This document shows, in pieces, positions 4,640 through 64,000 of a stretch of DNA of 64,000 nt (its first letter is position 1; each line of letters starts with the position of its first letter). Position numbers and translations under genes: made by a program. The stretch covers positions 3,767 through 67,766 of the forward strand of contig CAMBTP010000011.1 in the NCBI GenBank assembly GCA_945870855.1, read 5' to 3'. The notes below the pieces were generated by a model that made no database searches, was not told the origin of the DNA, and was given only the letters and a program-made list of their open reading frames with translations. This DNA is from Prosthecobacter debontii. GTDB taxonomy: Bacteria > Verrucomicrobiota > Verrucomicrobiia > Verrucomicrobiales > Akkermansiaceae.

Positions 4640-4738
4640 TCACGCCAGAACTCTTCTCACCACATTCCCATGCACATCCGTGAGGCGGAAATCGCGGCCA
4701 AGGGCGCGGCAGGTGAGCTGGGGGTGGACTAAGCCGAG
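4640..4738 (-). pseudogene. Diverged duplicate of the 3' end of the adjacent DUF1501 gene
   Basis: 4640-4723 aligns without gaps to 4829-4912 (73/84 identical) and reads ...[26 protein letters not shown] versus [26 protein letters not shown]. Confidence 0.85.
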
Positions 4739-4741
4739 GAC

Positions 4742-4831
4742 TATGGAGAAGGACGCCTCCGGCTCCTTAGCGAAGAATCGAGAACGGTTCGCTTGGGTTG
4801 ATATAAGGAGCCGGAGGCGTCCTTCTCCTTA
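4742..4831. repeat. REPIN/MITE-like element: two inverted REP arms around a 34-nt spacer
   Basis: Perfect 25-bp inverted repeat ggagaaggacgcctccggctcctta (4745-4769) / taaggagccggaggcgtccttctcc (4804-4828). Each arm is itself a hairpin. Confidence 0.85.
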
Positions 4832-6256
4832 CGCCAGAATCTTTTTTACCACATTCCCATGCACATCCGTGAGGCGGAAATCCCGGCCTTGGGCGCGGTA
4901 GGTGAGCTGGGTATGATCGAAGCCTAAGAGGTGGAGAATGGTGGCGTGGAGGTCGTGGACGTGAACCTTATCCTCGACGGCGTTGAAGCCTAGCTCGTCA
5001 GTTTTGCCGAGTTCGACGCCGCCTTTCACGCCGCCGCCAGCCATCCACATGGTGAAGGCGTTGGGATGGTGGTCGCGGCCATCGCTGCCGCCCTGCACCA
5101 TGGGCGTGCGGCCAAATTCACCGCCCCAAATGATGAGTGTTTCATCAAGCAAGCCGCGCTGTTTGAGGTCCGCGATGAGGGCGGCGCAGGCCTTGTCCAC
5201 GTCGAGGCAGTTTTTCTTGAGGTCAGCTGTGAGATTGCCGTGCTGATCCCATGATTCGTGGAATAGTTCAACGAAGCGGACGCCGCGTTCAATGAGGCGG
5301 CGGGCGAGCAGGCAGTTATTGGCGAAGGAGCGCTCGCCCGGTTTGGCTCCATACATTTCCCGAACACTTTCCGGCTCCAACGAGATATCGGTGACCTCGG
5401 GCGCGACGTCCTGCATACGGAAGGACATTTCGAAGGCAGCTACGCGGGAGTTAATCTCGGGATCGCCGATGGATTCGAAGCGTTTGTGATTTAGAAAATT
5501 CACCGCATCAATGGTGCGGCGCTGAGCATCGCGGGAGATGCCTTTCGGGTTCGAGAGATAGAGCACGGGATCGCCGACAGAGTTGAACGAAACACCATCG
5601 TGGACGGTGGGTAGAAAACCGGAAGACCAGTTCGCATTACCGCCAGACGGCCCTTTCAAACCCGATGACATCACGACGAAGCCGGGCAGGTTCGCATTTT
5701 CCGAACCGAGGCCGTAACTGACCCATGAGCCGAGCGATGGCCGCCCGAACTGCTGGGAGCCGGAGGACATGAGGATTTGAGCGGGTGCGTGATTAAATGC
5801 ATCCGTGTGCATCGAGCGAATCAATGCGATATCATCCGCGTGCGAGCCGATATGCGGCAAAATTTCCGCCATTTCCATGCCGCACTTGCCATATTTTTTG
5901 AATGGAAACTTGGAGCCTAGAAGCTTGTTCTCCGGGCGGATGAAGGCGGAGCGATATCCTTTCAATAGCTCGGCAGGTGGGTTCTTGCCGTCCATCTCAC
6001 GGAGGACGGGTTTGTTATCGAAGAGATCGATATGGCTGGGTGCGCCGCCCATGAAAAGGAAGATGACATTCTTCGCCTTGGCAGGAAATGGCGGTGCTTT
6101 CGGAGCCTGTGGATTGATGGCCGACGCGGCAGAAGCAGTGCCCTGCCCAAGCATCGACGCGAGCGCGACCGAGCCAAGGCTGAGTCCGCATTCTTTCATG
6201 AACCAACGTCGTGAGTAGGAGCGCTGGATGTTGGCGAGGGTGGAGGGTGGGAGCAT
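4829..6256 (-). CDS. DUF1501 domain protein (sulfatase-fold, PVC-typical)
   Basis: Tat-like SRRWFM N-terminus, NVIFLFMGGAPSHIDLFD, WDQH, WGGEFGRTP, GRDH, HDLHATILHLLG. Downstream of a PSD1/DUF1553 gene, the usual PVC pairing. Confidence 0.92.
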   Translation of the reverse strand: MLPPSTLANIQRSYSRRWFMKECGLSLGSVALASMLGQGTASAASAINPQAPKAPPFPAKAKNVIFLFMGGAPSHIDLFDNKPVLREMDGKNPPAELLKGYRSAFIRPENKLLGSKFPFKKYGKCGMEMAEILPHIGSHADDIALIRSMHTDAFNHAPAQILMSSGSQQFGRPSLGSWVSYGLGSENANLPGFVVMSSGLKGPSGGNANWSSGFLPTVHDGVSFNSVGDPVLYLSNPKGISRDAQRRTIDAVNFLNHKRFESIGDPEINSRVAAFEMSFRMQDVAPEVTDISLEPESVREMYGAKPGERSFANNCLLARRLIERGVRFVELFHESWDQHGNLTADLKKNCLDVDKACAALIADLKQRGLLDETLIIWGGEFGRTPMVQGGSDGRDHHPNAFTMWMAGGGVKGGVELGKTDELGFNAVEDKVHVHDLHATILHLLGFDHTQLTYRAQGRDFRLTDVHGNVVKKILA

Positions 6257-20169: not shown

Positions 20170-20235
20170 TACATCCCGGAATTGCAGAGCTTGCCTAAGC
20201 AGATTTCCAAACATCCCAGCGCGGGAAATTTTTCA

Positions 20236-20490
20236 CCGGACCGCGAGACTTCAGCTCGCCCCCATGAAGTGACGATGTGAAGCGCGAACGCACAAATCAT
20301 CGGCTTTCCCAAGGGCATCGGCGGATTCTGATCCGCCGCTCCATGCTGTGGAAAATCGCCGCTGGCGGAGCCGCGTTCGCCGGACCGCGAGACTTCAGCT
20401 CGCCCCCATGAAGTGACGATGTGAAGCGCGAACGCATAAATCATCGGCTTTCCCAAGGGCATCGGCGGATTCTGATCCGCCGCTCCATGC
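20236..20490. repeat. 111-bp tandem direct duplication of a REP cluster (period 144 bp)
   Basis: 20236-20346 and 20380-20490 differ at one position. Each unit holds two hairpins with ATGGAG/ATGGGG heads on the minus strand (cggcggat-caga-atccgccg and gcgag-ctgaagt-ctcgc). Confidence 0.9.
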
Positions 20491-28451: not shown

Positions 28452-30515
28452 GTGACCTCCGGCCAAACCCCGCTCGCCTCCCTCGCGTTCCTTTCCCCCA
28501 AGGAATTGCTGGCTCTGGAGTCCGCCGGCTTCGTGACTGTTGCAGATCTCCTCACCCATTTCCCGAAGCGCTATGAAGATCGCCGCCAGTTCGACAATTT
28601 TCCCAATCTCCCCACCGGCAAACCCGTCTGCCTGCACGGCGGCGTGATCGACGCGGGCACCAAGGGCTTCGGAAAAACGCGTTTCTATGAGGCCGTCATC
28701 ATGGACGGCTCCGGCGGAGTCTTCGGCTCCGGGAAAATCACCTGCCGTTGGTTCAACATGCCCTTCATGTCGAAAGTGATCGCCGCCGGCCAGCAGGTGA
28801 TTGCCTACGGGAAAGTGAAGGAACAAGGCGGGCGCCTCATCATCGACCACCCGGAAATCGAGATCGTTTCCGATGACGGAGAGGAAACGATCCACCTAAA
28901 CCGCATCGTCCCAATCTATAAAAATATCTCCGGCCTCAACCAGCGCCGCCTGCGTGAGATCATCCACTCCGTAGCGGCGGATTGCATCCTCCATGCCGAT
29001 CAGAACCCCCTCCCCTTCCCTTTTTCCGTATCCGTGAACAACCGCACGGAAGACCTTTTCGAAACCCACTTCCCCACCTCCGCCGAATCCTCAAAATCCG
29101 CCCGCCGCCGCTTCGCCCTCGAGTCCTTCTTCACCCTCCAACTCAATGTCGTCTGGCAACGCACCCGCCACCTTTCACAAAATGGTCGTGTGCTTGGAAA
29201 AAAAACCACTCTGCTCAAAGCCTTTTACGAAAGCCTCCCCTTCGACCTCACCGGCGCACAGAAACGATCCATCAAGGAAATCATCGCCGACATGCGCGCG
29301 CCACGCCCCATGAATCGCCTCCTCCAGGGAGATGTCGGCTCCGGGAAAACCTTCGTCGCTCTCGCCTCCATGCTACTCGCCATCGATTCCGGAGCAGACG
29401 CCGCACTGATGGCTCCCACCCAAATCCTCGCCGAGCAGCATTTCCTAACCTTCCGGAAATGGCTGGAGCCGCTCGGCGTAAATCTCGTCCTCCGCACCGC
29501 AATATGGAGAAGGGGTTTGCAACCCCTTTCTTCAACTCAACCCGAACCTCAAGCCCCAACCATTTTCATCGGCACCCACGCCCTGCTCTACGATGAAACT
29601 CTCTTCACCGATCTTGGCCTCGTGGTGATCGACGAGCAGCACAAATTCGGCGTAGCCCAACGCGCCGCCCTGATCCGACAAGGCACTCTCCCAGATGTCC
29701 TCGTAATGACCGCCACGCCCATCCCCCGCTCGCTAACCATGACAATCTACGGCGACCTCGACGTCTCCCTGTTAGATGAGAAACCCGCCGGTCGCGGAAA
29801 AATCGTCACCGCCCTCCGCACCAAGCCGAAGCAGCAGGATATCACCGATTTCGTGAAAGCCCAGCTCGCCGAAGGCCGCCAGGCTTACCTCGTCTATCCG
29901 CTCGTCGAGGAAAGCGATTCCGTGAAAGCCGAATCCGCCACCGAGGCTTTCCCGAAATGGCAAAAACGGCTCGGCGCGGGAAACGTCGGCCTGATCCACG
30001 GCAAGCTGCGCCCTGAGGAAAAAGACGCGGTGATGGAAGATTTCCGCAGCGGAAAAACCAAAGCCCTTGTCGCAACCACCGTGATCGAAGTCGGCGTGGA
30101 TGTCCCCAACGCGAACCTGATGATCCTCCACCACGCCGAGCGCTTCGGCCTTGCCCAGATCCATCAGCTACGAGGTCGAATCGGACGTGGCGAGCACAAG
30201 TCCTACTGCATCCTCCTCACCGATTCTAAAATCCCCGAGGCCATCGAGAAACTCAATATCCTCGAAAAATCCTCAGACGGCTTCGAGATCGCCGAAGCCG
30301 ACCTCCGCCTCCGCGGCCCAGGCGACATCCTCGGCACCGCCCAATCCGGCCTCACCGATCTCCGCTTCGCCGATTTCATAACTGATACCGAATTGATACG
30401 CGAAGCGCGCTCACTCGCCGATCAAGTTTTCAGGGAAGATCCGGATCTAACAGGAATCTACGCGAACCTCCGCCCATTCATCAACGAAAGCACCGCGCCG
30501 CAGGGGGCGCATTGA
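28452..30515 (+). CDS. recG: ATP-dependent DNA helicase RecG
   Basis: OB/wedge N-terminus, MNRLLQGDVGSGKT, MAPTQILAEQH, IDEQHKFGVAQR, MTATPIPRSL, TTVIEVGVDVPNA, QLRGRIGRG, DLRLRGPGD. Confidence 0.97.
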   Translation: MTSGQTPLASLAFLSPKELLALESAGFVTVADLLTHFPKRYEDRRQFDNFPNLPTGKPVCLHGGVIDAGTKGFGKTRFYEAVIMDGSGGVFGSGKITCRWFNMPFMSKVIAAGQQVIAYGKVKEQGGRLIIDHPEIEIVSDDGEETIHLNRIVPIYKNISGLNQRRLREIIHSVAADCILHADQNPLPFPFSVSVNNRTEDLFETHFPTSAESSKSARRRFALESFFTLQLNVVWQRTRHLSQNGRVLGKKTTLLKAFYESLPFDLTGAQKRSIKEIIADMRAPRPMNRLLQGDVGSGKTFVALASMLLAIDSGADAALMAPTQILAEQHFLTFRKWLEPLGVNLVLRTAIWRRGLQPLSSTQPEPQAPTIFIGTHALLYDETLFTDLGLVVIDEQHKFGVAQRAALIRQGTLPDVLVMTATPIPRSLTMTIYGDLDVSLLDEKPAGRGKIVTALRTKPKQQDITDFVKAQLAEGRQAYLVYPLVEESDSVKAESATEAFPKWQKRLGAGNVGLIHGKLRPEEKDAVMEDFRSGKTKALVATTVIEVGVDVPNANLMILHHAERFGLAQIHQLRGRIGRGEHKSYCILLTDSKIPEAIEKLNILEKSSDGFEIAEADLRLRGPGDILGTAQSGLTDLRFADFITDTELIREARSLADQVFREDPDLTGIYANLRPFINESTAPQGAH
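29501..29529 (+). repeat. ATGGAG-family REP arm embedded in frame in recG
   Basis: aatatggagaaggggtttgcaaccccttt is 28/29 identical to the intergenic copy at 41301-41329. Confidence 0.85.
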
Positions 30516-30668: not shown

Positions 30669-31739
30669 TCATACCCGCACTCGCAGATCACGCATACTCC
30701 ACAGCGTCCCCGCCGCAGGAGCCCCGCTGCCCCGCATCCTCCGCGCTCCATCCTTTCTCTTCTCCGTAAACCTCTCCCGCGCCCCAGCGAAGGCCTCGTT
30801 CACGAACTCCTTGCTACCGATCACCGCACCATCTGTGAAATACCTCACCCGCATCCGAAGCATTTTCGCCATCCCAAGATCCGGCAAGTAGGAGCGATCT
30901 TCGGTCGCCCCCTCCAGATACTCCGCCTCATTCTGCGAAGCATAATCCAGAAGCACCGCTCCTGCGCGTCCGCTTTTTCTAACAAGTGCAAGCCCCATCG
31001 CCCTACGATAGATCCGTGAAACTTCTTCCCACGATTCGATTTGGATCTGCTCTCTGGTTTCTGGATTCCGAACCGTCAGGATCAGTCCCAATCTCGCTTT
31101 CTTGCCGTTCCCCTTGGCACCGCCACCCACCGCCTCGCCATATCCGCTCCAACGGTAATCTGCCGGATCGGATACCATCCCCGCCCGCACCGGATTCAAA
31201 TCAATGTAGGCCGCCATAGTCCGTGCCGCCGCGCCGCTTTGCACGATGACACTCTTGTATCGCTCCTCCCATAAGGTTCCTCGGCGCTTGTGCTCCCGGT
31301 TGAACCAGCGCGTGAACCTTTGCAAAAGCGTCTTCATGAACTCGCTCAGATCGTGCATCCGGTAAGTGAAACGCGCATGTATCTCCGCCACCATCGCCTC
31401 ATCCTCCTCAATGCGCGCGCTCTCAAGCTCCTTTACCACCCCGTCCACATAAGCATCAGAATACAAAGCTCGCAGCCGTTTCAGAAGCAGCTCATCGGAA
31501 ACTCCACCCTCCGGAACAGGCGGAACCTCCAGCAGCAGATGGAAATGGTTCGACATCACGCAATACGTAAGCACCCGGCAGCCCGTGAAATTCTCCTGCA
31601 TCCGCATGAATATCCGGAACTTCTCCCGCTCCTCATCCCCAAACACAAAACGCCGATCCACCACCCGCGAAATACAATGGTAAATCGCCGGCTTCCCCTG
31701 CTTGTTCGCCCATTCCGCCAACCATCTCGCTCTACGCAT
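30669..31739 (-). mobile_element. REP-associated tyrosine transposase (RAYT; IS200/IS605 Y1 HUH family)
   Basis: YHCISRVVDRRFVF, HUH motif YCVMSNHFHLL, FTRWFNR...GTLWEERYKS, catalytic-Tyr helix AAYIDLNPVRAGMV. No TnpB nearby. Start placed at 31739 (MRRARW). Confidence 0.88.
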
Positions 31740-31780
31740 GCGGCCATCTTGCCCTCCCCGATGAACATCACAAGACAATT

Positions 31781-31900
31781 CACACATTTTGTCTGTCCCT
31801 TTGTGTGAATGCAGGCTTTGTCCCACGCGTAGACTACACATTTTGTCTACACATTTTGTCTGTCCCTTTGCGTGGTCCCTTTGCGTGATCCCTTTGCGTG
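31781..31900. repeat. Mosaic of 13-bp tandem repeats upstream of the RAYT
   Basis: (t)acacattttgtc three times (31782-, 31835-, 31848-) and (g/a)tccctttgcgtg three times in tandem (31862-31900), plus a variant tccctttgtgtg near 31796. Confidence 0.85.
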
Positions 31901-32012
31901 AGTTGGAAAAAATGGCCGGTGGCGATGGTCTTCCCGCCGTCATCCCCGCGCTTGGGATCGTGGGTGGTGGCGTGCTTGAACGGCTTGAAACCCCAGCCAG
32001 AGATACGGCCGA

Positions 32013-41300: not shown

Positions 41301-41361
41301 AATATGGAGAAGGGGTTTGAAACCCCTTTGCGGAGGATCGGGAAATGGGTTCGCTTCGGTT
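41301..41361 (+). repeat. ATGGAG-family REP arm plus REPIN spacer (half element)
   Basis: Arm aatatggagaaggggtttgaaaccccttt followed by gcggaggatcgggaaatgggttcgcttcggtt, similar to the 4770-4803 spacer. Confidence 0.8.
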
Positions 41362-41368
41362 ATGCGAA

Positions 41369-63893: not shown

Positions 63894-63933
63894 ATCTGCT
63901 AGGGCGATCAAGCTAGGGAGTGAAAATCCAGCT

Positions 63934-64000
63934 ATATGGAGAAGGGTGCTTCCAGCCCCTTTGCACAAGCCAAGCGAACCGATTTCCAAGTCCTCCGCAA
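63934..64000. repeat. ATGGAG-family REPIN running off the window end
   Basis: Arm atatggagaagggtgcttccagccccttt, followed by the reverse complement of the family spacer (gcggaggacttggaaatcggttcgcttgg). Confidence 0.75.

Follow-up and report, generated by a model that had tools for sequence, protein, structure and literature searches.

A putative palindromic mobile element fragment carried in frame in the recG gene of a Prosthecobacter debontii genome

In-frame palindromic repeats represent a rare, documented route by which selfish DNA adds peptides to housekeeping enzymes. The Correia elements of Neisseria are TA-flanked MITEs (transposable elements of the miniature inverted-repeat kind) of approximately 100 nucleotides (nt) with terminal inverted repeats, which often occur as solo or truncated copies and are sometimes located inside genes. 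The Rickettsia palindromic elements (RPEs), mobile elements of ~100-150 bp, are found in frame in unrelated Rickettsia housekeeping genes, where the encoded peptide is compatible with the fold and function of the host protein and the inserts are kept across species (Ogata et al. 2000, 2002, as summarised in passages of PMC10969869). Repetitive extragenic palindromes (REPs) of the GTAG/CGTC type also occur within genes in several phyla, the intragenic GTAG repeats reaching their highest number in the verrucomicrobium Opitutus terrae; according to the passages of that study drawn on here, the intragenic copies are concentrated in genes for DNA synthesis and repair (uvrA, uvrB, uvrD/rep, recBCD, polA and dnaE2), where single or dimeric repeats contribute 20-30 amino acids (aa) and the host genes stay open (Di Nocera et al. 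2013; PMC3733652). A comparable locus is described here in recG, the gene for the RecG helicase, of a genome assigned to Prosthecobacter debontii. The window, the whole 64,000-nt stretch of DNA that was analysed, corresponds to positions 3767-67766 of contig C11 of genome G000, an assembly of 91 contigs (2.98 Mb, 56.8% G+C) that resembles a metagenome-assembled genome (MAG). The segment in question is most probably the partly deleted remnant of a palindromic element, tolerated in frame within a RecG loop that is permissive to inserts; it would be old, recombine among lineages and have been acquired or overwritten more than once. The genomes compared carry G numbers, and loci, including those of species-representative genomes, carry L numbers; P0001 denotes the RecG allele of the window and the other P numbers denote alleles or proteins derived mostly from metagenome assemblies, on which most of the allele comparisons rest.

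The recG cassette and its host gene

The 29-mer AATATGGAGAAGGGGTTTGCAACCCCTTT occupies positions 29501-29529 on the plus strand of the window and matches an intergenic stretch at 41301-41329 in 28 of its 29 positions; no match was found in 100 dinucleotide-preserving shuffles of the window. The initial annotation had read this similarity as a dispersed element that entered recG, and the dispersed nature of the repeat is confirmed by G000 as a whole, which contains four exact copies of the 29-mer, 13 with at most one mismatch and 20 with at most three, as well as 72 copies of the core TATGGAGAAGG, of which only about one would be expected in 2.98 Mb. When the copies inside and outside coding sequences (CDSs) are counted, nearly all 72 prove to be intergenic, the only confirmed genes with internal copies being recG (one arm) and hemW (two arms).

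The listing of all G000 copies with their flanks reveals an element of ~90 nt without coding capacity, in which two inverted arms flank a conserved asymmetric spacer (GCACAA(G/C)CCAAGCGAACCGATTTCCAAGTCCTCCGC). Each arm consists of the head TA-N-GGAGAAGG, a hairpin of variable sequence and the motif CCTT, and the ends of the element form terminal inverted repeats (TATGGAGAAGG... and ...CCTTCTCCATA). Almost every copy has TA at its two ends, with the third base being variable, and none of the copies listed has a GTAG/CTAC or CGTC tetranucleotide adjoining the hairpin. Twenty-eight full elements of the REP doublet forming hairpins (REPIN) type, 71-101 nt in length and with the spacer GCACAAGCCAAGCGAACCGATTTCCAAGTCCTCCGC kept, are accompanied by solo arms and a minimal single-hairpin form. 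Several stem variants with paired changes coexist (GGGGTTTGCAACCCC, GGGGTTTGAAACCCC, GGGATTTGAAATCCC, GGGTCTTGCAGCCCC / GGGTGCTTCCAGCCCC and GGACGCCTCCGGCTCC). Of the 25 genomes of the genus, 15 (G000 included) contain the family, which was not found in any of 16 genomes representing the order's other genera. The exact 26-mer is present in 67 stretches from species representatives, and with a single exception these bear the label of a Verrucomicrobiota MAG (Akkermansiaceae, 'Luteolibacter', 'Haloferula' and the like). The initial annotation had held that the peptide IWRRGLQPL in orthologues from genomes free of the family would speak against a repeat origin. Orthologues do share this peptide, in a genus where the family is widespread, and strictly no case of that kind was encountered.

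In recG, the arm at 29501-29529 (plus strand) comprises the head AATATGGAGAAGG and a hairpin formed by AAGGGGTT (29510-29517) and AACCCCTT (29521-29528) around the loop TGC. DNA and protein alignments with the no-insert alleles P0031 and P0050 delimit a 42-nt element-derived cassette at 29502-29543 (plus strand), comprising codons I351-P364 (IWRRGLQPLSSTQP), which is made up of one arm and the first ~13 nt of the spacer. These 14 codons stand in place of seven native ones (AACCGCCGCGAGGACATCATG, coding for NRREDIM), a net change of +21 nt. The window allele reads GCA ATA TGG AGA AGG GGT TTG CAA CCC CTT TCT TCA ACT CAA CCC GAA CCT CAA GCC CCA ACC, where the conspecific P0031 has GCG AAC CGC CGC GAG GAC ATC ATG GAA TCC CAT GGC CCA ACC. 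Species-level relatives (86-89% aa identity) have ...VNLVLRTA-NKREESIAAHG-PTIFIGTHALL at this position, and more distant members of the genus and order have RTGNRDE.... A hidden Markov model (HMM) of 27 full elements (those outside hemW) aligns its positions 1-40 to 29503-29541 with an E-value of 1.2e-6 (nhmmer). The loop tail EPQAPT (29544-29561, plus strand) is retained native sequence, homologous in the alignments to ESHGPT of the no-insert alleles, so that the last five loop codons are EPQAP here and ESHGP in P0031. The initial annotation had further compared tcaaccc....gaacc with the spacer tcaacccaagcgaacc of the element at 4742-4831; tcaaccc is indeed derived from the element, but GAACC coincides with native codons (GAA TCC in the no-insert allele), which places the junction at ~29543/29544. 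The GAAC common to the element and the native loop may mark this junction. Similarly, the proposal that a REPIN had landed and been trimmed to keep the frame holds in that only a partial element is present, but the event amounts to a replacement, with 42 nt gained and 21 native nt lost. All six frames of the arm, as read from the sequence, are open, and this property, together with the net change of +21 nt, accounts for the survival of the reading frame.

The cassette is located in helicase domain 1, between the strand that follows motif Ia (LVLRT) and the IFIGTHA strand preceding motif II, and the alignments and the sequences of relatives agree with the earlier placement in a variable segment of this domain. 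In HMMER alignments, the RecG proteins of T. maritima (1GM5) and E. coli have a helix at this site (TTPSEKEKIKSGLRNGQID and KQKGKARLAQQEAIASGQVQ, respectively), before IVIGTHA. The native segment in this genus is seven residues shorter than in canonical RecG, suggesting that the helix was already reduced in the genus. In an AlphaFold model of the protein (mean predicted local distance difference test score (pLDDT) 82, predicted template modelling score 0.76), strands at residues 344-348 and 370-374 enclose residues 354-364, for which the pLDDT is below 50. The insert is thus modelled as a surface loop without confident structure. The predicted tryptic peptide of RecG across the segment is GLQPLSSTQPEPQAPTIFIGTHALLYDETLFTDLGLVVIDEQHK.

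The host gene itself is intact. The recG CDS (28452-30515, plus strand; 687 aa), identified from its open reading frame and NCBIfam and Pfam profiles, scores above the curated cut-offs of both RecG equivalog models (NF008168, 772.3 against 718 bits; TIGR00643, 666.8 against 659.4 bits). The protein contains the Pfam domains RecG_wedge, DEAD, Helicase_C and RecG_dom3_C, and shows the wedge, the superfamily 2 (SF2) helicase motifs I, Ia, II, III and VI and the C-terminal TRG region expected of a RecG, with a match to 1GM5 at an E-value of 1.4e-135. It is the only recG in G000, the second-best match being Mfd. As the initial annotation had stated, the frame is continuous across the 29-mer (...LRTAIWRRGLQPLSSTQPEPQAPTIFIGTHALL) and the helicase motifs on both sides are intact, including Walker A (GDVGSGKT), DEQH and TATPIPR. 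Nei-Gojobori estimates, with the loop excluded, give ratios of nonsynonymous to synonymous substitution (dN/dS) of 0.118 for P0001 and P0016 (dS 0.48), 0.114 for P0001 and P0020 (dS 1.01) and 0.135 for P0016 and P0020 (dS 0.82), all of which carry the repeat, and of 0.094 for P0001 and the repeat-free allele of G016 (dS 0.56). The values of ~0.11 between repeat-bearing alleles argue that recG with the repeat is functional, and the gene has stayed under purifying selection while bearing the cassette.

These values also contradict the notion that recG is a decaying pseudogene, or the segment a chimera of assembly, which can hardly be maintained. The fragmented, MAG-like nature of the assembly and the frequent position of repeats of this family at contig ends would be in its favour, but the frame is open with all motifs present, and the same allele recurs in 13 further distinct proteins (P0002-P0014; 96-100% identical) recovered by a metagenome protein search, all of which carry IWRRGLQPLSSTQ[PL]EPQAP, while the recG cassette is also found in another species representative (L079). 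As a separate observation, the recG of the relative G008, a two-contig assembly, matches in three pieces in different frames (G008:C2:3245363-3247476), which may be due either to frameshifts from sequencing errors or to a broken gene.

Loop alleles among lineages

Three states of the recG loop can be distinguished, namely none (the ancestral loop), the intact repeat (REP) and a decayed form designated "HKK". Besides the cassette of the window allele, the loop IWRRGLQPLSSTQPKPQGP is found in proteins with 91% identity and VWRRGLQPLSSEQPASHGP in one with 83% identity, while further REP-type loops include LWRRDLKSLSCDPP, LWRRDLKSI and VWKKGLAAPFSSHP. The HKK group comprises IHKKSTQPQSSTDHCSLGTDHRSKA and related long forms. 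The distribution of these states is patchy, and the expectation of the initial annotation that the segment would be strain-specific fails in both directions. Lineages with as little as 78% nt identity and a dS of up to ~1 share the cassette, and conspecific assemblies (98% nt identity) keep the ancestral loop. Samples that yielded the no-insert allele include ERZ27280265, ERZ27280278 and ERZ27280301. Four proteins that group within the window protein's clade (P0031, P0049, P0050 and P0056) nevertheless show the ancestral NRRE... loop; P0031 has 97% aa identity to the window protein and 98.4% nt identity on the 5' side of the loop. In a maximum-likelihood tree of 119 RecG sequences, from which the loop columns were removed, the three states interleave and require at least 16 changes, and the well-supported branches alone force at least six changes for the REP state.

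Pairwise comparisons of alleles are in keeping with exchange of the loop. P0016 (REP) and P0035 (HKK) have only nine differing positions outside nt 1038-1095, of ~2050 compared. Between P0031 and P0050 there are 39 differences, 29 of which cluster in nt 1062-1284 and six in nt 420-474, which is the pattern expected from short recombination tracts. P0001 has the native tail codons CCT CAA in common with the REP allele P0016 of another lineage and not with the conspecific P0031. The flanks of the loop (CTCGTCCTCCGCACCGC and ACCATTTTCATCGGCACCCAC) are extremely conserved, and it is concluded from these mosaic patterns that discrete loop alleles are old and have probably been exchanged by homologous recombination across them. 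A long recombination tract around the cassette was also considered for P0001 and P0031, which diverge by 1.4% on its 5' side and by ~3.5% on its 3' side and show a local peak at nt 1149-1284; this was suggestive, not decisive.

The HKK alleles were not detected by the element HMM. However, P0028 has a long REP allele (ALWRRGLQPLSSTEPQSPADHRSLATGHRSEA) that is intermediate, at the protein level, between the intact and HKK forms, and this intermediate and the stretch CAACCCC..TCTTC.ACT in common suggest that the HKK form derives from the repeat. In L008 (G006), which branches deepest in the subclade, the recG loop is a low-complexity stretch of 29 aa (NHKKTTQDQSSEQIKNHQSSIINHKSR) that has Q-x-Q-SSEQ in common with REP-type alleles, suggesting that it may be a very old, decayed copy.

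Stem variants, further in-frame copies and the neighbouring Y1 gene

All REP-type alleles begin directly after CTCCGCACCGC[ACG], in the same orientation and the same frame, but differ in their stems. Variant A, with the stem GGGGTT/AACCCC, is present in G000, P0016 and P0020; variant B, with GGGATT/AATCCC, in P0021 and, truncated, in P0057; and variant C, which is decayed and closest to the GGGTCTTGCAGCCCC subfamily, in P0022. These three are equal in length and in both junctions and probably derive from one event. Variant D, in P0113 from a 'Luteolibacter sp.' MAG, has a quite different perfect hairpin (GCAAGGAAAGGCGGATGTCATCCGCCTTCAACAACCCAAGCG|ACC) with a canonical spacer and a different right junction. 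Its hairpin occurs at ~10 loci in its own genome (G041), where the head is CAAGGAGAGG and the spacers are of the same type; it was not found in G000, even when three mismatches were allowed, and the GGAGAAGG-N13-CCTT family was not found in G041. The recG copy therefore matches the resident repeat pool in both G000 and G041, which requires either an independent insertion at the same nucleotide position or the replacement of an earlier copy through overwriting by a resident element.

A second gene with an in-frame copy is hemW of G000, coding for the heme chaperone (TIGR00539, 271 bits), which contains a complete 74-nt doublet (contig C4, 102905-102978; L046/L047) between the radical S-adenosylmethionine CxxxCxxC motif and GGGTPS, giving EA-ICRRGLQPLGTGSASAKGVANPFSIY-LGGGTPS. 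At this site, hemW of G015 (82% aa identity) has a copy of equal length with different stems; decayed or shortened versions are present in hemW of G002, G003 and G008, and no copy was found in hemW of the deeper branch of the genus. Concerted evolution with the resident pool was considered as a general pattern and rejected, as the B-type stem of the G015 hemW is without another copy in G015 and the hemW of G041 lacks an insert; lineage-matching is thus shown only for recG in G000 and G041.

These data bear on the alternative that the loop is a true hot spot of insertion or conversion, caused by the flanking 10-mer GTCCTCCGCA or by an old copy acting as a landing pad, rather than the site of a single old insertion spread by recombination. 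This 10-mer, which in native recG spans 29487-29496 (plus strand) and falls in the codons V-L-R-T, recurs without change at the 3' end of the element spacer; it has 15 non-element copies in G000, and a match of at least 10 nt was reached in only 30 of 5000 shuffles of the 60-nt flank. Chance identity is therefore improbable, and the 10-mer could possibly serve as a targeting or homology cue. Different stems at an identical position, frame and orientation, a variant D that matches the pool of its own genome and is lacking in G000, and the different stems at the hemW site in G000 and G015 are all in line with a hot spot. They are countered by the uniform length and junctions of variants A, B and C, as from one event, by the lack of a common upstream motif among the other genomic copies, by the G015 and G041 hemW genes described above, and by the ability of a selection filter to mimic a hot spot where only permissive loops keep inserts. 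A hot spot is compatible with the explanation preferred here, i.e. a tolerated element fragment exchanged among lineages, and is regarded as possible, with the balance tilting somewhat against it. The more far-reaching proposition that the recG loop, and likewise that of hemW, is repeatedly re-occupied or overwritten by resident elements, so that the copy tracks the pool of its own genome (A in G000, D in G041), is tentative and rather unlikely. If true, it would mean targeted insertion or element-to-element conversion inside an essential-type gene, and would provide a natural polymorphic system for the study of REPIN/MITE-like site choice and hairpin upkeep in coding DNA.

A third in-frame arm is found in priA, coding for the replication restart helicase, of L096 (Verrucomicrobiota MAG JAUIJD010000014.1, minus strand, ~nt 898 of the reversed locus), where it lies just upstream of Walker A and is read in a different frame (AMEKGFETP and ~30 aa). 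Copies within long open frames in G000 (C53, C57, C27, C39 and C2) and in other MAGs (L090, L076/L114 and L125/L099) were also considered as intragenic and rejected, since each is placed either upstream of the probable start codon or in a spurious frame.

An IS200-like Y1 (HUH) transposase gene (30669-31943, minus strand; Pfam Y1_Tnp, 2.6e-14) is located 154 nt downstream of recG. Against the NCBIfam model REP_Tyr_transpos for REP-associated tyrosine transposases (RAYTs) it scores 62.8 bits, below the cut-off of 80. Its only nearby repeat copy is the recG arm, at a distance of 1.1 kb. Synteny with conspecific no-insert contigs ends exactly at the recG stop codon, which places the Y1 gene in a variable region. 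Y1_Tnp has 21 matches in G000, at ~18-19 separate loci, and the proximity of these loci to repeats in G000 is not significant. An association of the repeat with one particular Y1 transposase was considered and set aside as unproven: by a rough count, only two of the seven genes of the type adjoining recG have a copy within 2 kb, as could arise by chance. The Y1 gene at 30669-31943 is accordingly only a candidate mobiliser. Short tandem and direct repeats occur at its 5' end (31782-31900), where ACACATTTTGTCTGTCCCTTTGYGTG is present twice, followed by repeats of CCCTTTGCGTG.

The hairpin in recG could alternatively function as a nucleic acid, either as an mRNA structure that tunes translation or stability or as a DNA site bound or cut by the neighbouring Y1 transposase, with selection on the nucleotides keeping the hairpin. 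The predicted RNA fold of 29491-29545 has a free energy of -16 kcal/mol (z -2.0), and variants B and D, at -15 to -17 kcal/mol, are similarly stable, in contrast to -3 kcal/mol for the decayed HKK allele; in A, B and D, paired changes leave the stem perfect. There are no synonymous differences over the ~6 synonymous sites of the arm between alleles with dS of 0.5-1.0 and a gene-wide proportion of synonymous differences of 0.36-0.56, with a probability of ~0.008 for the most distant pair (P0001 and P0020). A Y1 gene lies next to recG here and another follows it in the P0025 contig, in keeping with a role as a DNA site. However, the P0025 allele is decayed, and many lineages, conspecifics included, lack the hairpin or have it in decayed form (HKK, P0022) with an equally constrained recG. 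The conservation of the arm is also not unusual, and not significant, relative to the locally conserved flanks (divergence ~8%), and recent transfer by recombination explains it equally well; either recent transfer or nucleotide-level constraint may lie behind it. A functional hairpin is consequently considered quite improbable.

Three further copies or repeats in the window complement the recG arm. The match at 41301 belongs to an intergenic solo arm with spacer (GCGGAGGATCGGGAAATGGGTTCGCTTCGGTT; 41301-41365, plus strand), identified as the same family by the window copy search and the copy listing. A full ~90-nt element with another stem (GGACGCCTCCGGCTCC) occupies 4742-4831, directly bordered by 99-nt direct repeats (4642-4740 and 4831-4929; 84% identical), which may reflect an element-associated duplication or insertion between tandem copies. 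A full element of the most abundant subfamily (GGGTGCTTCCAGCCCC / GGGTCTTGCAGCCCC; 63935-64000) is cut by the window end. This subfamily (window 63905-64000) lies within longer conserved flanks (cgatcaagctagggagtgaaaatccagcta ... gggagaatt..caccgccaagagcgccaaga) and is often found at contig ends of G000 (C7, C10, C13, C16, C39, C65, C70, C74 and C78), suggesting that the assembly is broken by a larger repeat to which the subfamily belongs. A pair of direct repeats of 115 nt each, with 98% identity and a spacing of 144 nt, is also present at 20232-20490.

Proposed course of events and comparison with known systems

In the course proposed here, part of a palindromic, non-autonomous mobile element (REPIN or MITE type) would have become fixed in the reading frame of a loop in RecG helicase domain 1 that is permissive to inserts, with one arm and the start of the spacer (42 nt) replacing seven native codons, presumably by insertion followed by deletion. 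As the protein tolerates the insert, it is probably a passenger, presumed to be neutral, rather than a new functional module. The REP allele would then have persisted through speciation in coexistence with the ancestral allele, while short-tract homologous recombination across the conserved flanks would have moved it between lineages, and the same site appears to have been occupied at least twice by elements from the pool of the resident genome. The initial annotation is partly supported: it identified the kind of event correctly, but was mistaken about how old and how specific it is.

Several points weigh against this course of events. The lack of synonymous changes in the arm could mean nucleotide constraint rather than recent transfer, and the perfect hairpins maintained through paired changes in variants A, B and D point in the same direction; both bear on the presumed neutrality of the insert. 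Among the alleles compared there is no pair of empty and filled sites with a clean insertion and target duplication, and as the native 21 nt are missing, the order of insertion and deletion is a reconstruction. Recombination is likewise deduced from mosaic patterns in metagenome assemblies, not isolates.

The natural allele types, comprising the ancestral loop, the intact repeat, the decayed form and other stems, segregate within and between species, and this series makes the cost or benefit of the insert testable by comparison within one helicase, as well as offering a handle on site targeting versus element-to-element conversion. For annotation, it implies that a recG-like gene should not be taken for an error on account of an odd proline-rich or Trp-Arg-Arg loop.

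The locus resembles the intragenic REPs of Di Nocera et al. (PMC3733652) in that short palindromic repeats are carried in frame in genes that stay open, with DNA-repair genes as hosts, but its head is TA-N-GGAGAAGG rather than GTAG or CGTC, and on account of this difference the recG repeat falls outside the GTAG/CGTC families. RecG, PriA, HemW, same-site variants across species and presence/absence within species are not mentioned in the passages of PMC3733652 drawn on here. As with the RPEs, a palindromic repeat is present in frame in functional genes (recG, hemW and priA) and adds a surface peptide; however, the phylum differs from that of Rickettsia, only 42 nt remain and native codons have been lost. 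The differences in phylum and size make membership of the RPEs by sequence unlikely, and the relation is rather one of mode of action. The inverted hairpin doublets with a spacer, present in dozens of copies with stem variants alongside Y1 (HUH) genes, recall the REPIN-RAYT systems (Bertels and Rainey 2011; PMC3116915). RAYTs are typically single-copy and flanked by REPs, in contrast to the ~18-19 Y1 loci of G000, none of which is shown to be repeat-flanked. The Correia-type MITEs are similar in the ~90-nt size of the element, its TA-starting inverted repeats and the solo, truncated and occasionally intragenic copies, but differ in that the TA may here simply form part of the inverted repeat. 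By analogy, the element may be assigned to either the REPIN-RAYT type or the TA-flanked MITEs; the earlier label 'REP/REPIN' is apt for the palindromic inverted doublets, but without a GTAG/CGTC head it applies by analogy only. The kind of event is already known from the Rickettsia RPEs and from the intragenic REPs in DNA-repair genes, including those of Verrucomicrobia, reported in 2013. What is new are the host genes recG, hemW and priA, the lineage of freshwater Akkermansiaceae-like Verrucomicrobiota, the presence/absence polymorphism within a species, and the several stem variants at one codon position, one of which matches the pool of its own genome.

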